DNA of 64,000 nucleotides from Flavobacteriales bacterium (lineage in GTDB: Bacteria; Bacteroidota; Bacteroidia; Flavobacteriales; Flavobacteriaceae). Location of the stretch: positions 2,187 through 66,186 of the forward strand of contig JBBRCJ010000008.1 in the NCBI GenBank assembly GCA_038204955.1, in the 5' to 3' direction. This document shows positions 4,743-40,026 of this stretch, one piece after another. The stretch's first letter is position 1. The number at the start of each line of letters is the position of its first letter. The notes below the pieces were generated by a model, which did not search any database, was not told the DNA's origin, and saw only the letters and a program-made list of their open reading frames with translations. The position numbers and the translations under genes were made by a program.

Positions 4743-7700
4743 ATGAGTTTATCTACTTTAAGTATCCGAAGACCCATATTTACAATAGTAATTAATTTAT
4801 TAATTGTACTGTTCGGAATTATTGGTTACACCTTTTTAGGAGTTCGAGAATTTCCATCAATCGACCCAGCACAAATTTCGATAAGTACGAGTTATACAGG
4901 GGCAAATTCAGATATTATTGAATCGCAAATAACCGAACCTTTAGAAAAAGCTATAAACTCAATTGACGGAATTAGAAATATAACTTCTTCAAGTAACCAA
5001 GGAAGCAGTAATATTACGGTTGAGTTTAATTTAGATAAAGACTTAGAAACAGCTGCAAATGATGTTAGAGACAAGGTTTCACGAGCAATTCGAAGCCTAC
5101 CACAGGATATTGATGCCCCACCAGTAGTTTCAAAAGCAGATGCAAATGGTGATGCAATAATTTCGATGACTGTACAAAGTGATACAAGAAGTGCTTTACA
5201 GTTAAGTGATTACGCTGAAAATGTAATCGGTCAACGTTTAGAAACAATTCCTGGAGTAAGTGGAGTTCAAATTTGGGGTCAAAAACGGTATGCAATGCGA
5301 CTTTGGATAGACCCAGTAAAATTAAATTCTTACGGCTGCACTGTTTCTGATGTTCGGACTGCTTTAAATAAGCAAAACGTAGAGCTTCCATCAGGAAAAT
5401 TAACTGGCAATAACACTGAATTAACAGTTAAGACCGTTGGTAATTTATCCAAACCAGAAGAATTTAACAACATTATTATACGTTCTGATGCCGATAAAAT
5501 AGTACGTCTTAGTGATATTGGACGTGCGGAACTAAGTGCCGAGAATGTCGAAACTCAGATGACACAATCGGGAACTCCGCTTGTAGGTGTAGCTATTGTG
5601 CCACTTCCTGGTGCAAATTACTTAGATATTTCTAAAAAATTTTATGCAGAGTTTGAAAAATTAAAAAAAGATTTACCTAAAGACATTAAACTAAATATTG
5701 CAATAGATACAACAGTTTTTGTTAAAAAATCAGTTTTAGAAGTTGCTGAAACTTTAGGGATATCAATTTTACTTGTAATATTAATCATCTATTTGTTTTT
5801 TAGAGATTGGGCAATCGCCTTTCGTCCATTAATTGATATTCCCGTTTCACTAATTGCTACTTTTTTCATCATGTGGTTGTTTGGTTTTTCTATAAATGTG
5901 CTTACTTTACTGGCAATCGTATTAGCAACTGGTTTAGTTGTAGATGACGGAATTGTAGTTACCGAAAATATTTTTAAGAAAGTTGAAGAAGGAATGACTC
6001 CCATTGAAGCCGCCATCAAGGGTTCAAACGAGATTTTCTTTGCAGTTATATCTATCTCCATAACACTAGCCGCAGTGTTTTTACCAGTTATTTTCCTAGA
6101 AGGATTTGTAGGTAGATTGTTTAGAGAATTTGGAGTAGTAATTGGCGCTGCAGTTTTAATTTCTGCCTTTGTATCGTTAACCTTAACCCCAATGCTAAAC
6201 GCCTATTTGATGAAAGGTGGCGAACAAAAAAAATCTAAATTTTATTTAAAAACGGAACCCTATTTTGAAAAGTTAAATGCTAGTTATGCTAGTTACTTGA
6301 ATCGTTTTATGAAAAAAAAATGGTTGAGTTTTCCAATTATTATTTTCTGTTTTGGATTAATTTACGTGTTTTTTAATTTACTTCAAAAAGAAACGGCACC
6401 GTACGATGACCGAAGTGGTTTTGTAATGCGAATGTCTACTCCAGAAGGAGCAACTTATGATTATACGGACAAATTTATGCAAGAAATTTCACGTCTTGTC
6501 GATGATTCAGTTTCAGAAAAAAAAGTGAGTTTAGTAATTACTTCACCAGGTTTTGGTGGCTCATCATCAGTAAATAGTGGCTTTATAAGAGTTTCATTAA
6601 AAGAACCTAATGAAAGAAAACGTTCTCAGAAAGAGATTGCGTCTAAACTTACTCAATTAACCAAACAATATCCTGATGCCAAAACAACAGTTATTGAACA
6701 ACCTACAATTGCAGTAAATAGACGTGGAGGTTTACCAATACAATATATCATACAAGCACCTAATTTTGAAAAACTACAAGAAAAAATTCCATTATTTATG
6801 GACGAGGCATCAAAAGATCCAACGTTTGCCATAACTGATGTTAATTTAAAATTCAACAAACCAGAAATAAATGTAAGTATAAATCGTGAAAAAGCCGAAA
6901 GTTTAGGGATTTCAGTAATTGATATTGCACAAACACTACAACTATCGTTAAGCGGACAACGATTTGGATATTTCATCAGAAGTGGGAAACAATACCAAGT
7001 AATAGGACAATTTGATCAAAAAGATCGTTCTAAACCTTTAGATTTGACCTCAATGTTTGTTAAAAATAACAAAGGACAACTTATTCAAATGGATAATGTA
7101 GTTAGTATTGAAGAAAAAAGTAATCCACCACAACTGTATCATAATAATAGATACATGTCGGCAACCGTTTCGGCTGGTTTAGCACCAGGAAAAAGTATAA
7201 GCGACGGAATTGAAGCGATGAATAAAGTAAAAGCTAAGGTGCTTGATGACTCGTTTACAACAGATTTAGGAGGTGAATCAAGAGATTTTGTCGAAAGTAG
7301 TTCGAATACATCATTCGCGTTTGGATTGGCATTATTGTTAATTTTCTTAATACTATCGGCACAATTTGAAAGTTTTATTGATCCTTTTATTATTATTTTG
7401 ACCGTTCCAATGGCTGTGGCCGGAGCCTTATTTTCATTATGGTTATTTGATCAAACTTGGAATATTTTTAGTCAAATTGGAACAGTAATGCTTATCGGAC
7501 TAGTGACAAAAAATGGAATTTTAATAGTAGAATTTGCCAATCAATTGCGAGAGCAAGGCAAACCAAAATTAGAAGCCATACTTGAGGCATCTGAAGCCCG
7601 ATTACGACCTATTTTAATGACTAGTTTGGCAATTTCATTAGGTGCATTACCAATCGCACTTTCATTAGGCGCAGCATCAACTAGCCGAATTGGAATGGGT

Positions 7701-7841
7701 GTTGTTATCGTAGGAGGAACCATTTTTTCATTAGTTCTAACCTTATTTGTAATCCCGGCTTTATACTTAATGTGGTCAAAAGCCAGAAAACATTATGAAG
7801 AATTTGATCACATTGATGAATATGAAAAAGAAAATAAATAA
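4743..7841 (+). CDS. RND (AcrB/HAE1 family) efflux permease
   Basis: 1032 aa. N-terminus MSLSTLSIRRPIFTIVINLLIVLFG, with 12-TM architecture and two large periplasmic loops typical of the AcrB family. Confidence 0.92.
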   Translation: MSLSTLSIRRPIFTIVINLLIVLFGIIGYTFLGVREFPSIDPAQISISTSYTGANSDIIESQITEPLEKAINSIDGIRNITSSSNQGSSNITVEFNLDKDLETAANDVRDKVSRAIRSLPQDIDAPPVVSKADANGDAIISMTVQSDTRSALQLSDYAENVIGQRLETIPGVSGVQIWGQKRYAMRLWIDPVKLNSYGCTVSDVRTALNKQNVELPSGKLTGNNTELTVKTVGNLSKPEEFNNIIIRSDADKIVRLSDIGRAELSAENVETQMTQSGTPLVGVAIVPLPGANYLDISKKFYAEFEKLKKDLPKDIKLNIAIDTTVFVKKSVLEVAETLGISILLVILIIYLFFRDWAIAFRPLIDIPVSLIATFFIMWLFGFSINVLTLLAIVLATGLVVDDGIVVTENIFKKVEEGMTPIEAAIKGSNEIFFAVISISITLAAVFLPVIFLEGFVGRLFREFGVVIGAAVLISAFVSLTLTPMLNAYLMKGGEQKKSKFYLKTEPYFEKLNASYASYLNRFMKKKWLSFPIIIFCFGLIYVFFNLLQKETAPYDDRSGFVMRMSTPEGATYDYTDKFMQEISRLVDDSVSEKKVSLVITSPGFGGSSSVNSGFIRVSLKEPNERKRSQKEIASKLTQLTKQYPDAKTTVIEQPTIAVNRRGGLPIQYIIQAPNFEKLQEKIPLFMDEASKDPTFAITDVNLKFNKPEINVSINREKAESLGISVIDIAQTLQLSLSGQRFGYFIRSGKQYQVIGQFDQKDRSKPLDLTSMFVKNNKGQLIQMDNVVSIEEKSNPPQLYHNNRYMSATVSAGLAPGKSISDGIEAMNKVKAKVLDDSFTTDLGGESRDFVESSSNTSFAFGLALLLIFLILSAQFESFIDPFIIILTVPMAVAGALFSLWLFDQTWNIFSQIGTVMLIGLVTKNGILIVEFANQLREQGKPKLEAILEASEARLRPILMTSLAISLGALPIALSLGAASTSRIGMGVVIVGGTIFSLVLTLFVIPALYLMWSKARKHYEEFDHIDEYEKENK

Positions 7842-7842
7842 A

Positions 7843-9156
7843 ATGAAAACAATAAAAAAAACAGTTTTACTATTGATTTTATTATGCTTTAGCATCTCAA
7901 AATTACAAGCACAAGAAGTTTTAACTTTAGAAGATGCTGTTAAAATTGCTTTAGAAAACAATTATGAAATAAAAATTTCAAAAAATAATTTAACTATTAA
8001 TAAAACTAATGTAGCTACTGGAAATGCTGGGATGTTACCAAAGTTAACAGCAACAATTTTAGATAACAATAGTATCCAAAATACAACTCAAACCCGATCG
8101 GACGGGACGGTAAATAAACTTGATAATGCAAAAAACAATAGCTTAGTTTATGGAGCAGGACTAGACTGGACGATTTTTGATGGATTTAAAATGTTTGCCA
8201 AATTAGACCAATTAAAAGCTTTACAAAAATTAGGCGAAGCAAATTTGAAACTAACAATAACTACAAAAATTAGCGACGTAACCTCAACTTATTATGATTT
8301 AGTTCAACAAAAACAACAACTTGCAGCTTTAGATAGTACTATTGTACTATCAAATCAACGATTAGATTTGGCTAAAAACAGATTTACTATCGGAAAAACA
8401 TCTAAACTAGAGGTTTTAAATGCACAAGTCGATTTGAATACTGATATAACAGCTCATTTACATCAAAAGGAAGTATATATGAATACAAAAACATTATTAA
8501 ACCAAATATTATCTCGTGACCTTACGACTGATTTTAACGTTATAAATATAATTACAGTAGACGAAAAATTAATTTTAAACGAGCTTAATGCGTTAGCTGA
8601 AAAACAAAATCCACAATTAGAAGCACAAATTTTAAATAAAAAAGTAGCCGAATTGCAATTAAAACAAATTAAAGGCGATCGATATCCTGTTGTAAAAGTA
8701 AATTCAGGATACAATTTTACAGAAACAGCAGCAAGTTTAGGATTTGTAACTCAATCATCTGCTAAAGGGTTAAACTATGGTTTTAGTGCTTCATTAAATA
8801 TTTTTGATGGGTTTGCACAACGCCGAAGCGAAAAAATTGCTAAACTTCAAATTGAGAATTCAAATATAGCAATTCAACAACAAAATCAATCATTAAAAGC
8901 TGCTTTAAGCACTTCATTTCAGACCTACTTAACTAATTTAGAACTGTCAAAATTAGAACAAAAAAATGAAATTATAGCTAAACAAAACTTAGCAATAACG
9001 CTTGATAAGTTTAGAATAGGAACGATAACCACATTCGAATTTAGAACAGCACAACTAAATTATACTAATGCTAAAGTACGCAATAGTAACGCCCAATTTC
9101 AAGCTAAATTATCTGAAATTTCTTTAAAGGAACTTGCAGGAAATATTAGTTTTTAA
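7843..9156 (+). CDS. TolC-family outer membrane efflux factor
   Basis: ORF 7795..9156. The probable start is the MKTIKKTV ATG at 7843, just after the pump stop codon. It has a signal peptide and LTLEDAVKIALENNYEIK with repeated coiled-coil halves typical of OEP/TolC. Confidence 0.88.
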   Translation: MKTIKKTVLLLILLCFSISKLQAQEVLTLEDAVKIALENNYEIKISKNNLTINKTNVATGNAGMLPKLTATILDNNSIQNTTQTRSDGTVNKLDNAKNNSLVYGAGLDWTIFDGFKMFAKLDQLKALQKLGEANLKLTITTKISDVTSTYYDLVQQKQQLAALDSTIVLSNQRLDLAKNRFTIGKTSKLEVLNAQVDLNTDITAHLHQKEVYMNTKTLLNQILSRDLTTDFNVINIITVDEKLILNELNALAEKQNPQLEAQILNKKVAELQLKQIKGDRYPVVKVNSGYNFTETAASLGFVTQSSAKGLNYGFSASLNIFDGFAQRRSEKIAKLQIENSNIAIQQQNQSLKAALSTSFQTYLTNLELSKLEQKNEIIAKQNLAITLDKFRIGTITTFEFRTAQLNYTNAKVRNSNAQFQAKLSEISLKELAGNISF

Positions 9157-13430: not shown

Positions 13431-15320
13431 TTGACTCCGTTAGAAATTTTAAAAAAATATTGGAAACACGAAACCTTTCGAGAACCTCAAGAAGAAATAA
13501 TTGAATCGGTTTTAAAAGGCAACGATACCTTTGCTTTAATGCCAACGGGCGGCGGAAAATCTATTTGTTTTCAAATTCCGGCTTTAATTAATGATGGAAT
13601 TTGTTTGGTAATTTCGCCCCTCATAGCCTTGATGAGGGATCAAGTACAGCAATTGCAAAAAATAGATATTAAAGCCATTGCATTAACTGGCGGCATTTCA
13701 ATTGAAGAAACCTCAAATTTATTAGACAACTGCGAATTTGGGAATTACAAGTTTTTATACATTTCGCCCGAAAGGTTGCAAAACGAATGGATTTTAGAGC
13801 GCATTAAAAACCTAAAAATTAATTTAATTGCCATTGACGAAGCACATTGTGTATCGCAATGGGGACACGATTTTCGTCCAGCCTATTTAAAAATTGCAAT
13901 TTTAAAAGTACATTTCACCAAAATCCCTTTTATTGCTTTAACAGCATCGGCAACGCAACGAGTTCAAAATGATTTAATTGAGCACTTAAAATTAAAAAAT
14001 TGTGCCATTTTCACCAAATCGTTCGAGCGTAAAAACTTGAGTTATATGGTTTACGAAATGGAAGATAAAATGCAATTAATAACTCAAATTCTAAAAAAAA
14101 ATCCACTACCTTCAATTATATACGTACGAAATCGAAAATCGTGTAGCGACACCGTAAAGCAATTGCAATCATTAGGCTTTACGGCTACTTTTTATCATGG
14201 TGGACTTTCAACCAAAGATAAAAACAACCAAATGCAACTTTGGATGGACGAAAAAGTGCAAGTAATGGTAGCTACTAATGCCTTTGGAATGGGAATTGAC
14301 AAAGCCAATGTAAAAACAGTTATTCACATTCAACTACCCGAAAATTTAGAAAATTATTACCAAGAAGCAGGTCGAGCGGGTCGAAATGGAGAAAAAGCAT
14401 TTGCACTTTTATTAACTAATGCAACCGATATACTTCATTCTGAAAACATTTTTTCGGCAAATTTAGTAGATAAATCATTTTTGAATTTGGTATTTTTAAA
14501 ACTCTGTAATTATTTTCAAATCCCGTATGGCGAAGGTTTAGATGAGCAATTTAGTTTCAATATTAATCAGTTTTCAACCAAATATAATTTACCAATTTTA
14601 AAAGTTTATAATGCCCTACAATTTTTGGACCGTCAAGGAATTTTAACTTTATCGCAAGAATTTTCAGAAAAAATAATCTTACAATTCATTATTCCATCTA
14701 AAGAAGTTTTAAGATACATTAGTTTAAATCCGAAAAAGGACGAAATTATAACAACAATTTTACGAACCTATTCTGGAATATACGAAATGTTACTTCCAGT
14801 AAATGTAGGTTTGGTTGCCCAAAAAAGTAACGTAAGTGAAAATGAAGTTTTAACTGTTTTGCACCAACTTTATGAAAAACAAATTATTGATTTAAAAGCA
14901 AAAAATAATGATACTTCAATCACTTTTAATGAGATTCGTGAAGATGAACGCACTATAAATCGAATTTCAAAACATTTATTAGCTCAAAATGAATTAAAAA
15001 AAGTGCAATTTGAAGCTGTTCTTCACTACATAAAAGAAGAAAAATGTAAAAATAAAGTACTACTTTCGTATTTTGGCGAAGTAACGAAAAAAGATTGCGG
15101 AATTTGTTCATATTGCATTTCCAAAAAGAAAAAACCAAAATCAGACACTTTATTATCCAATAAAATTATAAAATTGCTACAAATTGAACCTTTAAACTCA
15201 CGTGCTTTACAAATGATGACTAAATGTTCAAAAGATGATTTACTGATTACTTTAAAAGAACTTTTAGAAGAAAATACCGTTTTAATAAATCCAAACAATA
15301 CTTATTCAATTATAAAATAA
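13431..15320 (+). CDS. recQ: RecQ-family ATP-dependent DNA helicase
   Basis: 629 aa with PTGGGKS (motif I), DEAHCVSQWGHDFRP (DEAH plus the RecQ signature) and a Zn-binding CxxC region near the C-terminus. TTG start. Confidence 0.88.
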   Translation: MTPLEILKKYWKHETFREPQEEIIESVLKGNDTFALMPTGGGKSICFQIPALINDGICLVISPLIALMRDQVQQLQKIDIKAIALTGGISIEETSNLLDNCEFGNYKFLYISPERLQNEWILERIKNLKINLIAIDEAHCVSQWGHDFRPAYLKIAILKVHFTKIPFIALTASATQRVQNDLIEHLKLKNCAIFTKSFERKNLSYMVYEMEDKMQLITQILKKNPLPSIIYVRNRKSCSDTVKQLQSLGFTATFYHGGLSTKDKNNQMQLWMDEKVQVMVATNAFGMGIDKANVKTVIHIQLPENLENYYQEAGRAGRNGEKAFALLLTNATDILHSENIFSANLVDKSFLNLVFLKLCNYFQIPYGEGLDEQFSFNINQFSTKYNLPILKVYNALQFLDRQGILTLSQEFSEKIILQFIIPSKEVLRYISLNPKKDEIITTILRTYSGIYEMLLPVNVGLVAQKSNVSENEVLTVLHQLYEKQIIDLKAKNNDTSITFNEIREDERTINRISKHLLAQNELKKVQFEAVLHYIKEEKCKNKVLLSYFGEVTKKDCGICSYCISKKKKPKSDTLLSNKIIKLLQIEPLNSRALQMMTKCSKDDLLITLKELLEENTVLINPNNTYSIIK

Positions 15321-27715: not shown

Positions 27716-29143
27716 ATGTCTAAAACTGCGCAATCAGTCTGGGAAAATTGTCTCTCATTTATTAAAGACAATATTCAAGATCAAGCCTACAAAACTTGGT
27801 TCGAACCTATCAAATCGGTAGAATTAACAGACAATGCGTTATACATTCAAGTGCCAAGTAAATTTTTTTACGAATGGCTTGAAGAACATTATGTTAAATT
27901 ATTAAAATCGGCATTAACTAAAGAACTTGGTGATTCGGCAAAGTTACTCTATAAAATTAAAATGGAGAACACCTATGGGAATAAACTTCCTTTTACTGAA
28001 CAATTACCTAGCAACAACCGAAGCCCTATTAAATCGCAAGAAGTTGATGCGCCTTATAAAAACCTAAACCCTGAATTAAAAAATCCATTTGTAATACCTG
28101 GAATTCGAAATTTAAAAATCGAATCACAATTAAATCCAAATTACAGTTTTGATAATTTTTTAGAGGGCGATTCCAATCGCTTGGCACGTTCTGCAGGAAT
28201 GGCAGTTGCCAATAAACCAGGTGGAACTTCATTTAATCCGTTATTAATATTTGGTGGCGTTGGTTTAGGAAAAACCCATTTAGCGCACTCCATTGGTGTT
28301 GAAATTAAAGATAAATATCCAGAAAAAACCGTATTGTACATTTCTGCTGAAATTTTTACACAACAATATATAGATTCTGTAAAACAAAATAATCGAAATG
28401 ATTTTATACATTTTTATCAATTAATTGATGTTTTAATTATTGATGATGTACAGTTTTTTTCAGGAAAAACTGGGACTCAAGATGTATTTTTTCATATTTT
28501 TAATTACTTACACCAAAATGGTAAACAAGTAATTTTAACATCAGATAAAGCTCCTGTTGATATGCAAGATATCGAACAACGCTTATTATCTCGTTTCAAA
28601 TGGGGTTTGTCTGCCGAATTGCATCAGCCAGATTATGAAACTCGAATTGCTATTTTAAAAAATATTCTTTATCGTGATGGTGTTGAAATGCCAGATGACA
28701 TTATTGAATATGTAGCTCAAAACATAAAGTCAAATGTTCGTGAATTAATGGGAGCCATTATTTCATTAATCGCTCAATCTTCATTTAATAAAAAGGAAGT
28801 TACCATTGATTTGGCGAAAAGCGTGGTTGAAAAATTTGTAAAAAATGTAAAACGTGAAGTTTCAATTGAATACATTCAAAAAGTAGTTTCTGATTATTTT
28901 CAAGTTGATTTAGATGTTTTACAGTCCAAAACTAGAAAACGTCACATTGTTCAAGCGCGACAATTGGCTATGTTTTTTGCTAAGAAATTTACCAAGGCTT
29001 CGTTGGCAAATATTGGTTCGCAAATTGGCGACAGGGATCACGCAACAGTACTTCATGCTTGCAAAACAGTTGATAACCTAGTAGCTACCGACAAGCAATT
29101 TAAGAAATATGTAGAAGATATTCACAAGAAGTTGTCTTTGTAA
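27716..29143 (+). CDS. dnaA: chromosomal replication initiator protein
   Basis: 475 aa with Walker A GGVGLGKTHL, a DDVQF Walker B, sensor motifs and a C-terminal DNA-binding domain (DHATVLHA). Confidence 0.96.
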   Translation: MSKTAQSVWENCLSFIKDNIQDQAYKTWFEPIKSVELTDNALYIQVPSKFFYEWLEEHYVKLLKSALTKELGDSAKLLYKIKMENTYGNKLPFTEQLPSNNRSPIKSQEVDAPYKNLNPELKNPFVIPGIRNLKIESQLNPNYSFDNFLEGDSNRLARSAGMAVANKPGGTSFNPLLIFGGVGLGKTHLAHSIGVEIKDKYPEKTVLYISAEIFTQQYIDSVKQNNRNDFIHFYQLIDVLIIDDVQFFSGKTGTQDVFFHIFNYLHQNGKQVILTSDKAPVDMQDIEQRLLSRFKWGLSAELHQPDYETRIAILKNILYRDGVEMPDDIIEYVAQNIKSNVRELMGAIISLIAQSSFNKKEVTIDLAKSVVEKFVKNVKREVSIEYIQKVVSDYFQVDLDVLQSKTRKRHIVQARQLAMFFAKKFTKASLANIGSQIGDRDHATVLHACKTVDNLVATDKQFKKYVEDIHKKLSL

Positions 29144-33744: not shown

Positions 33745-34521
33745 TTAAAATTCAATTTCTCCTTCAAAAACTAATTGTGCAGGACCTTCAAGAAGAACGC
33801 TAGTATATTTATTATTTTCAACTTCGAATGCTACTTTTAATTGTCCGCCTTGAACGCTGATATTTATTTCGGTTTTGTTGGTTTTATTTGTTGCGTGCAT
33901 TGCAATTGCAGTGGCAGTTGCTCCTGTTCCGCACGAAAGAGTTTCGTTTTCAACGCCACGTTCGTAGGTGCGAATTGCGAAATGATTCTCAGAAATTTGG
34001 TGTACAAAGTTTATGTTACTTCCTTCTTTACCATATAAATCGCTGTTGCGAATTTGGCGTCCGATGGTTGTTACGTCAAAATTTTGCAAATCATTAACCA
34101 TCATTACGTGATGTGGCGAACCTGTGTTTAAAAAAACATAATCGTTTTCGATTTTAATTTCGTCAACGTTTTTCATTTGTAATGATATGTTTTGGTTGTC
34201 GAGAATGGTGGCGTGATGCAACCCATCGATGGCGTTGAATGTTGCTTTATTCGTAATTATATTGAGTTGTTTTGCAAAAGCTACCAAACAACGTCCGCCA
34301 TTGCCACACATTGTGCTTTGGTTGCCGTCGGAGTTGTAATAAACCATTTTGAAATCGACATTGTGTTCGTTTTCTAATAAAATAAGTCCATCGGCACCAA
34401 TGCCAAAACGTCGGTCGCACAGCTGCTTGATTAATTTTGTGTTGGCTTTTGGAAATGATAAATTTCGGTTGTCAATTAGTACAAAATCGTTTCCGGTGCC
34501 TTGGTATTTATAAAATTTCAC
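33745..34521 (-). CDS. dapF: diaminopimelate epimerase
   Basis: 258 aa with both catalytic Cys motifs (NSDGNQSTMCGNG and ETLSCGTGATA). Confidence 0.93.
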   Translation of the reverse strand: MKFYKYQGTGNDFVLIDNRNLSFPKANTKLIKQLCDRRFGIGADGLILLENEHNVDFKMVYYNSDGNQSTMCGNGGRCLVAFAKQLNIITNKATFNAIDGLHHATILDNQNISLQMKNVDEIKIENDYVFLNTGSPHHVMMVNDLQNFDVTTIGRQIRNSDLYGKEGSNINFVHQISENHFAIRTYERGVENETLSCGTGATATAIAMHATNKTNKTEINISVQGGQLKVAFEVENNKYTSVLLEGPAQLVFEGEIEF

Positions 34522-34541: not shown

Positions 34542-34579
34542 AAAAAAAATGCCTTTGAAAAACTTCAAAAGCATTTTTT
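34542..34579 (-). terminator. hairpin terminator after paralog 1
   Basis: AAAAAAAATGCCTTTGAA-AAAC-TTCAAAAGCATTTTTT. The same hairpin recurs after each paralog. Confidence 0.6.
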
Positions 34580-34590
34580 GTAATTACTTT

Positions 34591-35082
34591 TTACTGAAAA
34601 ACAATTGGTTTGGTACTTTTTGGAATTCTAACAATATGGTAAGGTTGGCTAGTTGTAAGAGCAAGACCACCAATAAAGTGCGCTAGGGAAATATTGATGG
34701 TGTTTTGATTTTCATTTATACCTACTATAGTAATTTCATTTCCACCAGAACTTTCTCTCACCACATCTATACAAACGATTACATTGTAATTGGCAAAATC
34801 AATGGTAGTAGTGGTAAAAGTACTGATAACATTGTAGCACCCTGGACAATTTGTATCTACAAGACTGTTTAAAAAAGCAGTCCAAGTAGCTTGATTAGTA
34901 ATTACCGTATTTTGCTGAGTAATACCCAAACCTGCACCTATTTTCTCTCCTTTACCAATTAAAAAAGGGTTAATAACAATAGGATAGGCAATCACTGCAG
35001 ATGAGGTTACTACTGGATCTATTGCGTTGTTGGAACAACTAAAGCAAATCAAGGAAACGAAAACTATAATAATTTTTTTCAT
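34591..35082 (-). CDS. lipoprotein, tandem paralog 1 (tentatively PrcB_C-like protease-complex subunit family)
   Basis: 163 aa with lipobox ...CFSCSNN. The C-terminal pattern IDF.NYNVIVCIDVVR..(S/T)GGNEITIVGI...SQPYHIVRIPKSTKPIVF resembles PrcB C-terminal domain proteins, from memory of that family. Confidence 0.5.
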   Translation of the reverse strand: MKKIIIVFVSLICFSCSNNAIDPVVTSSAVIAYPIVINPFLIGKGEKIGAGLGITQQNTVITNQATWTAFLNSLVDTNCPGCYNVISTFTTTTIDFANYNVIVCIDVVRESSGGNEITIVGINENQNTINISLAHFIGGLALTTSQPYHIVRIPKSTKPIVFQ

Positions 35083-35102
35083 AATTTCTATTTTTTAACT
35101 AG

Positions 35103-35140
35103 AAAAAAATGCCTTTGAAAAAACTTCAAAAGCATTTTTT
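35103..35140 (-). terminator. hairpin terminator after paralog 2
   Basis: Near-identical copy of the 34542..34579 hairpin. Confidence 0.6.
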
Positions 35141-35151
35141 ATAATTGCTTT

Positions 35152-35643
35152 TTACTGAAAAACAATTGGTTTGGTACTTTTTGGAATTCTAACAATATGG
35201 TAAGGTTGACTAAGACTTGGAATAAGTCCACCAATAACGTGCGTTAAAGATACATTGATGCTGTTTTGATTTTCATTTATCCCTACTATAGTAATTTCAT
35301 TTCCGTTGGCATTATATCGCACCACATCTATACAAACGATTACATTGTAGTTCGCAAAATCAATTGTAGTAGTGGAAAAAGTACTGATTATATTATCACA
35401 ACCTGGACAAGGAGCCCAGATTAGTCCATTCAAAAAAGAAGTCCAAGCCGATTGGGTAGTAATCACAGTATTTTGCTGTGGCAACCCTAATACAACGCCC
35501 ACATTTTCCCCTTTACCAATTAAAAAAGGGGTGATAACAATTGGATAAGCAATCACTGCAGGCGTCGCTACTACTGGATCTATTGCATTGTTGGAACAAC
35601 CAAAGTAAATGAAGGAAACTAAAACTAAAATATTTTTTTTCAT
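35152..35643 (-). CDS. lipoprotein, tandem paralog 2 (PrcB_C-like, tentative)
   Basis: 163 aa with lipobox YFGCSNN. It is collinear with paralogs 1 and 3. Confidence 0.5.
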   Translation of the reverse strand: MKKNILVLVSFIYFGCSNNAIDPVVATPAVIAYPIVITPFLIGKGENVGVVLGLPQQNTVITTQSAWTSFLNGLIWAPCPGCDNIISTFSTTTIDFANYNVIVCIDVVRYNANGNEITIVGINENQNSINVSLTHVIGGLIPSLSQPYHIVRIPKSTKPIVFQ

Positions 35644-35663
35644 AATTTCTATTTTTTAACTAG

Positions 35664-35700
35664 AAAAAAATGACCTTGAAAAACTTCAAAAGCATTTTTT
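35664..35700 (-). terminator. hairpin terminator after paralog 3
   Basis: Copy of the same hairpin (TGACCTTGAA...TTCAAAAGCA). Confidence 0.55.
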
Positions 35701-35711
35701 ATAATTGCTTT

Positions 35712-36203
35712 TTACTGAAAAACAATTGGTTTGGTACTTTTTGGAATTCTAACAATATGGTAAGGTTGACTGTCAAGAAGAAAAAAGCCACCAATAACAT
35801 GCGTTAAAGATACATTGATGGTATTTTGATTTTCATTTATACCTACTATAGTAATTTCATTTCCACCTGTAGTTCCTCTCACCACATCTATACAAACGAT
35901 TACATTGTAATTCGTAAAATCAATTGTAGTAGTGGAAAAAGTACTAATTACGTTGTTGCATCCCGGACAATTTGTGTCTACAAGACTGTTTAAAAAAGCA
36001 GTCCAAGTAGCTTGATTAGTAATTACCGTATTTTGCTGAGTAATACCCAAACCTGCACCTATTTTCTCTCCTTTACCAATTAAAAAAGGGTTAATAACAA
36101 TTGGATAGGCAATCACTGCAGGCGAGGCTACTACTGGATCTATTGCATTGTTAGAACAACCAAAGTAAATGAAGGAAACTAAAACTAAAATAATTTTTTT
36201 CAT
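35712..36203 (-). CDS. lipoprotein, tandem paralog 3 (PrcB_C-like, tentative)
   Basis: 163 aa with lipobox YFGCSNN. It starts 12 nt downstream of the S8 protease stop. Confidence 0.5.
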   Translation of the reverse strand: MKKIILVLVSFIYFGCSNNAIDPVVASPAVIAYPIVINPFLIGKGEKIGAGLGITQQNTVITNQATWTAFLNSLVDTNCPGCNNVISTFSTTTIDFTNYNVIVCIDVVRGTTGGNEITIVGINENQNTINVSLTHVIGGFFLLDSQPYHIVRIPKSTKPIVFQ

Positions 36204-36215
36204 AATTTCTATTTT

Positions 36216-39200
36216 TTAATTTTTAATTAATGTTTTTACAGCTACAATTTGCCCGTTGCAAACCAAGGCTACCGTATATAAGCCAGCTGCATAATTGGTA
36301 GTATTAATGTTTATTTCTGACGCTTCCACATTCAATGAATATGTATTTAAAGCATTTGTGGTGCCATAACTCCCTACTACCATTAAATTGGCAGTGGTTG
36401 CTGTATTTATTTTATAGTTTACTTTGATGGTATCACTAGCAGGATTGGGTATTATGGTAGAAAGGGTGTCTGGCTTAAAGGTTACTTGTACCTCATCATA
36501 ATCTTTAAAACCGTCGGCAGTTGCAATAACTTCTAGCTTGTACTTTTTGGCAGCATCGGCTGTAACGGTAAGGTCTTTACCAGTAAAAACCAGTGTATTT
36601 TGTTCATTGTACCAATTGTAAACTGCAGCTTCATTGATTTGAACTGCTGAAAGGGTAACCGCTTCATTGCGATTAACCACAACATCGGCGCCCGCAGCAG
36701 CATCAAAAGCAACCCGCGCTTGGTTGTTAATTTCGAACGTTTCGCCCCCTATAACCTTGTTGGTCAAGGCGTCTTTTTGAATTACTCGATACAGGTACTT
36801 TGTTTTTGGAGTCAACTGGTCGGTTAAAAAGTTGAATTTTAAATTTAATATCCCTACTTCATTGGCTTCAAAAGCAATGTTGTTAACCAGTACATGATTC
36901 CCTTCTACAATTTTTTGCTTTTCGCTGGCAGTTGGTTGCAGTAACTGTCCTTGTTTTCCGCCTCTTTGCCACGCATTGAACAATGTTTCGTCCATTTTTA
37001 ATGTTATTTCTGCCGCATCATAAATGGGTTTACCAGGTTCTAAAAGGTCTTTTTCAATTTCAAGATAAAAGGCTCTTGGGGTATTAAACGGGTTGGCAAT
37101 GGCTACTGATGCATTAAAACTTGGTGCTTCGCCCGGTACCACATTGGTTTCATTATTAACAATAGTAATGTTTTTCCAAGCTACATTATTGCTGTTTTGT
37201 ACATACTCTACAATACCAATTGGGTCGGGTGAAGAGGGTAGTTCAGGCACAAGGCCTTCAATACGTGACAACAAACAAAAATGCCAAGGTTCAGGGATGT
37301 TTGAATAAACGTTAGGGTCAGGCACAGCCCAAGGAAATTTTATAATGACCGTTTCCCCTGAATTTACAACTGGAATTGGTAGGCTTCCAATGACATTGCC
37401 CAAAAGTTGGTTGCTGTTGTTGTTGAAAAAAACGCCTCCGTTCCACGGATTTGGATAATCTAAACCTGTAGACGCTTTGGCCCAATAGGTTTTTAAAACA
37501 AAGTTGGGAGTTGACGGACTACAGCCTCTGTTGTCTACTTTTACATACAAATAATTTGGAGTACCATCACTATGATAGTTCGGATTTTGATGCGTTGTTC
37601 CGTTATCATCAGTATTGCGGATCCACATGGCTTGGCTTTCCCAAAAAGCAGTGGTTATGGTATTGGGTTCCTCCCCAATATCGGCTGGCGAATCTTTAAC
37701 AAACAAATCAATATTGGCATTTTGGGTTTGTTGTGCCATTTGTACTGCCGCTAAAGCATCTACAATACCGTAACCCATCTCTACATTCCAAGTACCATTA
37801 GTACGGTTCGTTGTAGTGCTATAATTATAGGGATTGCCCTGCAGAGGTGTTATGTTTTTTCGAGCTGTAGATTCAATAATGTTTCTTACTTGCGCTCCTG
37901 TAAAACAAGGATTTAATGCTAGAATTAAGGCAGCGACACCAGCAACATGTGGCGCTGCAGCAGAAGTACCACTATCTTTTAAAAATCCATTATTAGGTGT
38001 GGTAGAATATATATCTTCCCCTGGAGCTACTATATCAAGTTGCGAACCGTAACTTGATGATGCTCTTCTGTTGTTGTTTGAGGATACTGCACCAACTGCT
38101 AATACATTTGGGTTTTCGTTAGCTGGATAAAAAACAGAACTGCCATTGTTGCCAGAGGCAAAAACTACTACACAGCCCAATCGATGTCTTCCTGAATTTA
38201 AAGCATCGGCTATAGCATTATTTAGTAAATCGCTGTAAAAAAAACCATAATTAGAAGTGTTTTGAGTACTTACTCCCCACGAGTTGTTAATAACTTCGGC
38301 ATTACCCACTTGCCAAGACCAACTAATACCATTGGCTAGTTGCTCAGACAAACTTGGAGTAATCGCCAACTTGGTACTTACACTTATCAACTTACATTGT
38401 GGCGCCACCCCAGTTATTTGTATGCCATTGTTGCGTGCAGCACCAATAATACCTCCAACGTGTGTTCCGTGTTGAAAAAATGGTGAGGTGGAATCTATAA
38501 TGCTAGGTTGTGGGTTGGTCAAAGACGACTCGGTATCATAACTTAACGGGGCAATGTTAGCAGCCAGGTCTATGTGGTCTAGTTGTAAACCAGTATCAAT
38601 AACAGCAACTTTAACGCCAGTGCCTTGTGAAATTGCAAAGGCTTCGCATGCTTTAATTTTGGGCAAGTTCCATTGTTGCCCTAACAAAGGGTCATTACTA
38701 CAAGGCACTACGGGAGGTATTGTACTAACTGGGTTTTGATTTGACGTATCACTTACAGGATCAAAAGTGTAGTCTAACATAAATGCTGGGTCAATACTTT
38801 CAAACAAATTTGTTTCAAAAAAAATATTGGTCAATTCAACAGTAGTTTCAATAGTATTGCTTTTTCTATACAAAGCAAACCAAAGCGGCATAAACTTGTT
38901 TTGATAAAGTACGGTCACATTTTTTTCAAGAGCCAACTGTTTTAATTTGGTGGTGTCACTTAAGGTGGACAATTTTATATAAAACAAATTTGATGTACCT
39001 ACTGATTTAGTATCTGATGTTTTGTAAAATTTTGCAACACCAGTAACCCCATTCGTATTTTTTAAAGCATTTACCTTTTGTAAATATTCAATATCATTGG
39101 GTTCGTTTACAAATTCAAGTCGCGCAAATTTTTCATTTGCTTTTAATTTGGTATCCAATAATTTAAACTCTTTTACATTCAAATTAGTTATTGAAGCTGC

Positions 39201-39356
39201 ATTGAAAGTATTATCAACAAACAAGTTGACATATTTTTTTTCTTCTACTAATTTTTGCTGTTTCCCTTTGTAATAGTAGTAATTACTTTGACTAAAGATT
39301 GCTGTACTGCACAAAAACAACACTACAAATTTAATTTTTTTTAATTTCTGTTTCAT
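36216..39356 (-). CDS. S8 family (subtilisin-like) serine peptidase with a T9SS C-terminal sorting domain
   Basis: 1046 aa with a signal peptide. The catalytic triad motifs are AVIDTGL (Asp), HGTHVGGIIGA (His) and SGTSAAAPHVAGVAALI (Ser). The C-terminal IIPNPASDTIKVNY...LYTVALVCNGQIVAVKTLIKN is typical of the type A T9SS sorting signal. Confidence 0.9.
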   Translation of the reverse strand: MKQKLKKIKFVVLFLCSTAIFSQSNYYYYKGKQQKLVEEKKYVNLFVDNTFNAASITNLNVKEFKLLDTKLKANEKFARLEFVNEPNDIEYLQKVNALKNTNGVTGVAKFYKTSDTKSVGTSNLFYIKLSTLSDTTKLKQLALEKNVTVLYQNKFMPLWFALYRKSNTIETTVELTNIFFETNLFESIDPAFMLDYTFDPVSDTSNQNPVSTIPPVVPCSNDPLLGQQWNLPKIKACEAFAISQGTGVKVAVIDTGLQLDHIDLAANIAPLSYDTESSLTNPQPSIIDSTSPFFQHGTHVGGIIGAARNNGIQITGVAPQCKLISVSTKLAITPSLSEQLANGISWSWQVGNAEVINNSWGVSTQNTSNYGFFYSDLLNNAIADALNSGRHRLGCVVVFASGNNGSSVFYPANENPNVLAVGAVSSNNNRRASSSYGSQLDIVAPGEDIYSTTPNNGFLKDSGTSAAAPHVAGVAALILALNPCFTGAQVRNIIESTARKNITPLQGNPYNYSTTTNRTNGTWNVEMGYGIVDALAAVQMAQQTQNANIDLFVKDSPADIGEEPNTITTAFWESQAMWIRNTDDNGTTHQNPNYHSDGTPNYLYVKVDNRGCSPSTPNFVLKTYWAKASTGLDYPNPWNGGVFFNNNSNQLLGNVIGSLPIPVVNSGETVIIKFPWAVPDPNVYSNIPEPWHFCLLSRIEGLVPELPSSPDPIGIVEYVQNSNNVAWKNITIVNNETNVVPGEAPSFNASVAIANPFNTPRAFYLEIEKDLLEPGKPIYDAAEITLKMDETLFNAWQRGGKQGQLLQPTASEKQKIVEGNHVLVNNIAFEANEVGILNLKFNFLTDQLTPKTKYLYRVIQKDALTNKVIGGETFEINNQARVAFDAAAGADVVVNRNEAVTLSAVQINEAAVYNWYNEQNTLVFTGKDLTVTADAAKKYKLEVIATADGFKDYDEVQVTFKPDTLSTIIPNPASDTIKVNYKINTATTANLMVVGSYGTTNALNTYSLNVEASEININTTNYAAGLYTVALVCNGQIVAVKTLIKN

Positions 39357-39657: not shown

Positions 39658-40026
39658 TTAATATTGGTTGGTTGCCAAAAGTACCAAAGTACAAGCGATT
39701 TCATACTTAATTTTATTTAATTCTAACAATTGATAGAACTCTGGATTTTCGGTTCCTGGGTTAAAAATTACTCGTTTTGGTTTGGTTTCAATAATGTAAT
39801 TGTAATATTCTCGTTGGCGCGCTGGGTTTAAATAGAGCGTTACTGTATTAATTTTAGACAGTGGAATGGCTTTGGTACGAATTTTTACACCTGCCACTTC
39901 ACCTGTATTTTGCCCAATAGCTATAACCGAATGTCCTTTTTCAACAAGTGATTCGATGGCTTTGTAGGCATATTTTTCTGGTTTAGTGCTTGCTCCGAGT
40001 AGCACAGTTTTTTTATTTTTTATCAT
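39658..40026 (-). CDS. CoA-binding domain protein (YccU-like)
   Basis: 122 aa. The pattern GAS.KPEKYAYKA...GH.V..IG fits the CoA_binding_2 family. Confidence 0.75.
   Translation of the reverse strand: MIKNKKTVLLGASTKPEKYAYKAIESLVEKGHSVIAIGQNTGEVAGVKIRTKAIPLSKINTVTLYLNPARQREYYNYIIETKPKRVIFNPGTENPEFYQLLELNKIKYEIACTLVLLATNQY

Follow-up and report, generated by a model that had tools for sequence, protein, structure and literature searches.

A subtilisin-family protease gene followed by three PrcB-family lipoprotein genes in a Flavobacteriales bacterium

Are the small lipoproteins encoded directly behind a subtilisin-family protease gene partners of that protease, and why are there three of them? 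The question is raised by a locus in a 64,000-nt stretch of contig JBBRCJ010000008.1 (assembly GCA_038204955.1, Flavobacteriales bacterium), here called the window, in which the gene for a 1046-aa protease of the S8 family (S8 below) is followed by three tandem genes for PrcB-like lipoproteins (W1, W2 and W3). To our knowledge, PrcB has been studied only in oral treponemes. In Treponema denticola, PrcB is a lipoprotein that binds the protease PrtP and is needed for accumulation of the PrtP protein but not of its transcript; in the active dentilisin complex it is present as a subunit in equimolar amount and is still lipid-anchored (PMC8167434). No paper mentioning both PrcB and Flavobacterium was found in the literature library searched, and a search on the Pfam family names returned only a passing annotation in a Thermus paper. 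The locus is not categorically new, since Pfam and NCBI already recognise a PrcB family. The answer we favour, at a probability of about one half, is that a dentilisin-like partnership of protease and lipoprotein has been moved into the setting of a type IX secretion system (T9SS), so that the lipoproteins would be envelope-anchored partners of the neighbouring subtilase. This reading is put forward because of the PrcB homology and the conserved operon structure described below.

All features of the locus lie on the minus strand of the window, with the S8 gene first and the three 163-aa open reading frames (ORFs) W1 to W3 after it (Table 1). The units that carry the small genes are spaced at 561 and 560 nt and are 81-88% identical as DNA; the W1-W3 proteins are also 81-88% identical to each other. 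The 12-nt spacer between S8 and W1, AAAATAGAAATT, is in frame, has no predicted structure, and is identical to the leaders ahead of copies 2 and 3 (repeat families D5, D8 and D16). An earlier, sequence-only reading of the window had described the same-strand 12-nt gap and three 163-aa lipoprotein paralogs with a period of 560/561 nt. All of this is present, as are the motifs that it quoted from the paralogs, IDF.NYNVIVCIDVVR... and SQPYHIVRIPKSTKPIVF.

The sequence-only reading also likened the paralogs to PrcB, and the likeness holds at the level of the family rather than by direct match. W1 is 42% identical over 100% coverage (E 9e-24) to P0006, a protein recorded with PF14343, and matches NCBI entries named 'protease complex subunit PrcB family protein' (Chryseobacterium) at ~1e-17. 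Among 32 aligned family members, 24 match Pfam PF14343 PrcB_C and 21 match NCBIfam NF033596 denti_PrcB, the T. denticola PrcB model (best E 9.9e-11). Long family members exceed the Pfam cut-off, the family-profile matches reaching 26.5-87.7 bits against 24, and W1-W3 themselves lie under the curated thresholds of both PrcB models. By these sequence links W1-W3 are clearly members of the PrcB family, homologous at family level to T. denticola PrcB. The signal peptide of each copy ends in FGC or FSC at Cys16, a residue at least 90% conserved in the family alignment, and 92 of 96 family ORFs have a lipobox-like Cys; from the signal peptide and lipobox Cys the three proteins are predicted lipoproteins. 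An exhaustive profile search of the PrcB-like family yielded 3,810 clusters at 50% identity. Because the family is this large and mostly unlinked to proteases, the label 'protease complex subunit PrcB family' claims more about function than is warranted for most members. Weak matches of the small window proteins to SP_0198, PorP, DUF3025 and DUF1459 were under threshold and were disregarded. Three predicted polypeptides, P0061 (570 aa), P0063 (430 aa) and P0062 (274 aa), contain 2-4 whole PrcB-like domains in series; they may be either true fusions or merged gene calls.

Conservation of the link between the two genes was surveyed from both sides. The forward survey covered 79 Bacteroidota genome loci encoding PrcB-like family members, and S8 is directly upstream of the PrcB-like gene in six of these (L001, L007, L011, L029, L038 and L076), the two genes being between overlapping and +11 nt apart; L011 comes from a cultured strain, Flavobacterium fontis DSM 25660. 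The reverse survey covered 80 metagenomic loci encoding S8 relatives, 68 of them evaluable, and a PrcB-like gene is directly downstream of S8 in 18 of the 68, at gaps of -29 to +56 nt and always as a single copy. Across both surveys, S8 followed at a very small gap by a PrcB-like gene was found in 24 other loci. The linkage that the sequence-only reading wished to see surveyed thus recurs, but its tandem copies hardly do: no other locus had as many as three behind S8, L076 coming closest with two and the remaining linked loci carrying a single one. Compared with the window pair, the linked pairs are 34-59% identical in the C-terminal 300 aa of S8 and 30-46% identical in the lipoprotein. Distances for S8 and lipoprotein are correlated (Mantel r = 0.47, p <= 2e-4) over 24 pairs, i.e., 23 linked loci plus the S8-W1 pair of the window, and the lipoprotein evolves faster than S8. 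Given the two surveys and the Mantel correlation, the pairing is conserved and co-inherited in one lineage, optional, and not family-wide.

Inherited synteny in one Flavobacterium-centred lineage could be the whole of the matter, with the small proteins being general envelope lipoproteins prone to tandem amplification and having no dedicated functional link to the protease. We regard this as unlikely. Tight adjacency has been kept through the divergence just given, with no gap above 56 nt and some overlaps, chance adjacency of two specific families in 24 loci is negligible, and the homologous Treponema proteins physically interact (PMC8167434). What the absence of a link would explain is that most family members are not beside a protease, that tandem copies occur without S8 (L021 with five, many Chryseobacterium loci with a pair), that some polypeptides contain 2-4 copies of the domain, and that in L033 the PrcB-like gene directly follows the gene of a different T9SS cargo, a DUF5122 propeller.

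Two kinds of loci without the protease were seen in the forward survey. Locus L021:3783-6447, from Flavobacterium aureirubrum, has five tandem PrcB-like genes in the order A-B-A-B-C and no S8 in the 3.7 kb upstream; because of this array, tandem amplification is taken to be a recurrent, protease-independent habit of the PrcB-like family. A common gene block is found in ~28 Chryseobacterium loci (L010, L013-L018, L024-L051; e.g., L044:6511-7572). It comprises genes for a PspC-domain protein, an acyltransferase, a 4HBT thioesterase, the PrcB-like protein (one or two copies), a fusion protein with an extracytoplasmic function (ECF) sigma factor, an outer-membrane barrel, and a 330-385-aa lipoprotein with YWKNG-type repeats that is present in one to three copies and has no family match. 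A 353-aa neighbour in this block was considered as a protease and rejected, as it matched nothing in Pfam, NCBIfam or the PDB. The Chryseobacterium PrcB-family proteins resemble the window copies in family, in length, in the lipobox Cys and in sequence (36-39% identity); they differ in being part of a conserved block without adjacent S8, and in having, mostly, an acidic surface-export signal that the window copies are missing.

Fragments related to S8 were also encountered. Matches to S8 reported by phmmer in L003, L033, L006 and L055 were rejected, since in tblastn the alignments were confined to the C-terminal 44-102 residues. Small ORFs that lack a signal peptide (L003:5742-5990 and 6479-6814, L007:4425-4634, L033:113-451) share 53-59% identity with the C-terminal 66-102 residues of the window S8, with L003:5742-5990 weaker, and sit between PrcB-like genes and genes for the DUF5122 beta-propeller T9SS cargo. 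In sequence they look like remnants of S8 3' ends, which suggests recombination at the PrcB-like/DUF5122 junction.

A number of results weigh against a dedicated partnership. Small genes elsewhere without an adjacent protease, which the sequence-only reading had named as a finding that would tell against it, are the rule: an adjacent S8 was not detected in 73 of the 79 forward-survey loci, and no peptidase domain was found among the scanned neighbours in the Chryseobacterium block. From the other side, some 27 S8 orthologues are near full length, and ~15 of these have no PrcB-like gene: ~12 have one, nine have nothing comparable, and six have an unrelated signal-peptide protein of ~210-220 aa in the same slot, 5-17 nt downstream. 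This slot protein has its own T9SS sorting domain (Por_Secre_tail, E 5e-16), and its N-terminal ~130 aa gave no family match. It was considered as a divergent PrcB and rejected, because only the signal peptides align and because of that T9SS domain. The HMM search that the sequence-only reading had proposed came out negative: W1-W3 gave no match at E <= 1 to PF14343, nor to NF033596 denti_PrcB. In addition, S8 has its own propeptide, as shown below, and so has no obvious need for an external stabiliser. Finally, Bacteroidota lipoproteins are exported to the surface by a signal of the type SDDFE/SDDDD (PMC5080379), and the acidic residues behind the lipid Cys in most relatives resemble it. At least two Asp/Glu follow the Cys in 69 of 92 relatives, S8-linked examples being CNDDDVEP and CNDNDDQPE. 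The window copies read C-SNNAIDP at this place (window 36156-36135 in W1) and lack an acidic run. Their topology is uncertain for this reason, and their surface exposure may differ from that of their relatives.

The protease itself is an intact subtilisin. Pfam Peptidase_S8 covers residues 245-530 (E 2e-52), and D254, H296 and S465, along with the oxyanion-hole residue N403, are invariant or nearly so in five orthologues and in 47 homologues, in agreement with the intact triad claimed by the sequence-only reading. S8 thus has what defines a subtilisin, the Asp/His/Ser triad and oxyanion Asn in a subtilisin fold. The AlphaFold2 (AF2) model of S8 runs in order through a signal peptide, two beta-alpha-beta modules, a disordered linker, the catalytic domain and several beta-sandwich domains; the linker (aa ~200-222) is marked by a dip in the predicted local distance difference test (pLDDT). 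Foldseek matched the model to Bacillus subtilisins at E ~1e-22, with a TM-score (TMt) of 0.85-0.89 and 34-37% identity. Unprocessed pro-subtilisin E (3whi) is among the top fold matches, and mirolase of Tannerella forsythia (8ehe_A) ranks third at 31% identity. The alignments to unautoprocessed pro-subtilisin E and pro-Tk-subtilisin run over 429-480 columns and span propeptide plus catalytic domain. Because they do so, S8 is a genuine pro-subtilisin that carries its own propeptide.

The T9SS sorting domain that the sequence-only reading assigned to S8 has indirect support. The Por_Secre_tail match at residues 968-1042 scores 22.1 bits, under the Pfam cut-off of 27, but the same sub-threshold C-terminal match recurs in all four S8 orthologues scanned (4/4). 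PF18962 is on record for many S8 homologues, and in the AF2 model the sorting-domain region at the C-terminus is a confidently predicted beta-sandwich. From sequence and model together, S8 is probably a T9SS cargo. No T9SS components were found among the 10 other window ORFs scanned. The closest relatives of the locus proteins come from Flavobacterium and related Flavobacteriales. Flavobacterium and related genera of this order possess the T9SS. The best S8 relatives are just 49% identical and have generic names, those with named sources being from Flavobacterium, Myroides, Flavobacteriaceae and Bacteroidales. S8 was also considered as an orthologue of PrtP and rejected: it scores 91.5 bits against the cut-off of 300 for NF033595 denti_PrtP, and a generic mycosin model scores higher. 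Five paralogs of the S8 family (P0270, P0274, P0275, P0285 and P0286), 38-41% identical to the window S8, are probably all on one 2.4-Mb contig, which suggests that some genomes may carry a strongly expanded S8 protease family.

How close is the parallel to dentilisin that the sequence-only reading drew? In both the prcB-prcA-prtP locus and the present one, the genes for a small PrcB-family lipoprotein and a subtilisin-family protease share an operon, and to that extent the parallel is sound. The differences are several: the phylum is another one, the window protease is not a PrtP orthologue, the window operon has no PrcA gene, the gene order is reversed, with the protease first, and there are three mosaic lipoprotein copies instead of one. 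Export differs as well, going through a probable T9SS C-terminal domain here whereas the protease is acylated in Treponema. If the partnership has nevertheless been kept, the lipoprotein would bind the neighbouring protease at the outer membrane as PrcB does PrtP, and through its lipid anchor it would stabilise or retain the protease; the three variants would then be alternative binding surfaces. The lipoprotein may anchor, stabilise or inhibit the protease.

Inhibition has its own precedent. The potempins of T. forsythia are outer-membrane lipoproteins, with OB (oligonucleotide/oligosaccharide-binding) folds or eight-stranded up-and-down barrels, that are encoded upstream of, and co-transcribed with, T9SS peptidases including the S8 peptidase mirolase; they inhibit through surface loops, and the reactive loop of PotC is held by a disulfide (PMC9890683). 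Potempin/KLIKK-peptidase pairs such as PotC-mirolase (PDB 8ehe) resemble the window locus in that a Bacteroidota species pairs a peptidase, including a related S8 enzyme, with a small outer-membrane lipoprotein, the peptidase being secreted by the T9SS in T. forsythia and probably so in the window. By the same token the window lipoproteins could be cognate inhibitors or immunity proteins, protecting the envelope of the producing cell against the subtilase that it secretes or against variants of the enzyme made by competitors, with the copies and the stand-alone arrays forming a specificity repertoire. To the precedent of loop-mediated, disulfide-supported inhibition (PMC9890683) may be added that mirolase is the third-best structural match of the window S8, that the small protein evolves faster than the protease, that paralog variation lies in three loops, one of them with a clade-specific CPGC insertion, and that orphan copies and arrays without protease, such as the five genes in L021, resemble orphan immunity genes. 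We nevertheless hold the inhibitor explanation to be doubtful. The AF2 model of the lipoprotein (pLDDT 83) is an alpha/beta domain with two helices and seven strands, and Foldseek found no match for it in the PDB (best E 1.5, TMq <= 0.28), although the PDB holds potempin-peptidase complexes (8ehe); the failed match speaks against the fold of potempins or of any other known inhibitor. A PDB sequence search with the profile of the PrcB-like family found nothing meaningful either. As modelled, the fold is one without an experimental structure in the PDB, and it is not potempin-like. Moreover, the lipoprotein gene is downstream of the protease gene, opposite to the order in potempin loci; inhibition is known for potempins, whereas PrcB belongs to the dentilisin complex in its active form and PrtP does not accumulate without it, so PrcB is not an inhibitor there; and dN/dS, the ratio of nonsynonymous to synonymous substitution rates, is not above 1 wherever it could be computed.

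Tandem duplication gave rise to the three copies, the duplicated unit comprising a 13-nt leader, the coding sequence and a hairpin terminator. The sequences of the units form a mosaic. Units 1 and 2 nearly coincide in their opening ~100 nt; units 1 and 3 share an identical stretch of ~140 nt, from which unit 2 departs by up to 40%; and the 3' end is the same in all three. Because of this mosaic structure we infer gene conversion between the copies, with the loop regions staying distinct. Differences between copies cluster at residues 73-83, 109-113 and 139-145, which are loops in the predicted model, and these three regions are also variable or gapped in the wider PrcB-like family. The dN/dS of the three window copies is 0.25-0.28 overall, by which all three have been maintained, and 0.16-0.19 outside the loops. 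Within the loops synonymous sites are near saturation (proportion of synonymous differences, pS, 0.5-0.9 vs 0.15-0.34 elsewhere), so that two of the three loop comparisons gave no ratio; positive selection was not found in the W copies, dN/dS being below 1 wherever computable. The three copies are under purifying selection except in the three loops. Loop 1 (W1 aa 73-83, window 35955-35987, with equivalents in W2 and W3) contains CPGC in a five-residue insertion, a type of insertion limited to the three window paralogs and a close metagenomic relative, P0003, which has CPRC; it may be a disulfide-constrained loop or a metal site. P0003, from another sample, is a fourth variant, with loops 1 and 2 of its own and a loop 3 like that of copy 1.

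The sequence-only reading gave each paralog its own hairpin terminator, and a 36-nt AU-rich hairpin with a U-tract does lie 3' of each copy; the first is weak, however, and only the third passed a terminator scan. A strong hairpin follows the PrcB-like gene in eight of the 24 linked loci, so the hairpin is plausibly an ancestral operon terminator that was copied with each duplication. A scan for sigma-70-type promoters gave nothing above shuffles. The exact Bacteroidota -7 motif is absent between the copies, the motif being uninformative here, with 140 matches in the window against ~125 expected. Under the partnership reading, copy 1 would be translated from the protease transcript, and copies 2 and 3 would depend on read-through of the weak AU-rich hairpins or on promoters not recognised here.

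Do the extra copies serve variation? One possibility is that only copy 1 is efficiently expressed with the protease, copies 2 and 3 being mainly donors for gene conversions that alter the loops of the partner. The mosaic units, the hairpin after each copy, the lack of an exact -7 motif between copies and the mixture in P0003 of its own loops 1 and 2 with a copy-1-like loop 3 would all fit. Against it, copy 2 and copy 3 are both complete genes: each has a start codon, encodes an intact signal peptide and is preceded by the leader that copy 1 has, and purifying selection acts on both. The hairpins, for their part, are AU-rich, hairpin 1 being weak, and the -7 motif is uninformative, as said. We consider a donor role very improbable. 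Somewhat less remote, though still quite improbable, is the idea that the three mosaic, recombining lipoproteins serve a single T9SS subtilase as exchangeable modules, either partners or immunity proteins. Variable specificity would then reside in the small subunit rather than in the enzyme, and the stand-alone arrays would be orphan repertoires. If this were true, specificity would concern the choice of protected target or the site at which the enzyme is retained, and the analogy would be to polymorphic toxin-immunity loci. The suggestion of the sequence-only reading that these are exchangeable accessory, inhibitor or specificity subunits remains conjecture; the other S8-linked loci have one copy, except for one with two.

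Coordinates of the features are collected in Table 1. S8 and the three small genes are the only genes between dapF (34521..33745) and a gene for a 122-aa protein (40026..39658). Because dnaA, at window 27716-29143, is ~5.5 kb from the array, the locus, as a whole 5-10 kb from dnaA, is near the probable origin of chromosome replication. The window ORFs scanned included no mobile-element genes, an Rfam scan of the locus gave no match, and no sharp compositional break was seen around it. The locus is an operon of the core chromosome in a low-GC, Flavobacteriales-like bacterium. Elsewhere in the window are a resistance-nodulation-division (RND) efflux pump (4743-9156) and a RecQ-type helicase (13431-15320).

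Table 1. Features of the protease-lipoprotein locus (window coordinates) and, in the last row, genes in the lipoprotein slot of other loci
Feature	Position	Strand	Basis
S8 pro-subtilisin gene, 1046 aa, multiple C-terminal beta-sandwich domains	36216..39356	-	ORF; Peptidase_S8 E 2e-52; AF2 pLDDT 86.7
Signal peptide of S8, aa 1-24	39285..39356	-	hydrophobic N-terminus MKQKLKKIKFVVLFLCSTAIFSQ; single model helix, residues 2-24
Pro-region of S8, aa 26-190, two beta-alpha-beta modules	38787..39281	-	model secondary structure; linker aa ~200-222 after it
Subtilisin catalytic domain, aa 245-530, D254/H296/N403/S465	37767..38624	-	Pfam match; invariant columns; fold search
Beta-sandwich domains of S8, aa 575-960, last one Ig (immunoglobulin)-like	36477..37634	-	all-beta model segments; weak Ig_7 match 891-961
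Probable T9SS C-terminal sorting domain, aa 964-1046	36219..36467	-	sub-threshold Por_Secre_tail; orthologues; model
Spacer, S8 stop to W1 start, 12 nt	36204..36215	-	sequence; repeat families
W1, PrcB-like lipoprotein paralog 1, 163 aa, probably co-transcribed with S8	35712..36203	-	ORF; family links; AF2 pLDDT 83
Hairpin 1 and U-tract, weak	35665..35700	-	-10.3 kcal/mol, z = -1.6; palindrome I1
W2, PrcB-like lipoprotein paralog 2, 163 aa, most divergent	35152..35643	-	synonymous divergence (dS) 0.47-0.52 to other two; divergent tract aa 37-83
Hairpin 2 and U-tract	35105..35140	-	-17.3 kcal/mol, z = -3.9
W3, PrcB-like lipoprotein paralog 3, 163 aa	34591..35082	-	ORF; ~140 nt (aa 30-76) same as paralog 1
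Hairpin 3 and U-tract, array end	34544..34579	-	-18.3 kcal/mol, z = -4.6; passed terminator scan
Unrelated T9SS partners in the slot of the PrcB-like gene, other loci	L086:7180-7827, L090:7081-7713, L101:3731-4381, L104:7074-7709, L107:3665-4303, L116:7048-7713		

In sum, the window locus and its 24 relatives represent a conserved pairing, in Flavobacteriales, of a subtilase that is a probable T9SS cargo with a PrcB-family lipoprotein, and without PrcA. This suggests that the pairing of protease and PrcB exists well outside the spirochetes. Next to the potempins, it would give T9SS proteases a second class of lipoprotein partner, and it offers a simpler system, partly in culturable strains, in which to ask what PrcB proteins do, i.e., whether they act as anchor, chaperone or inhibitor.

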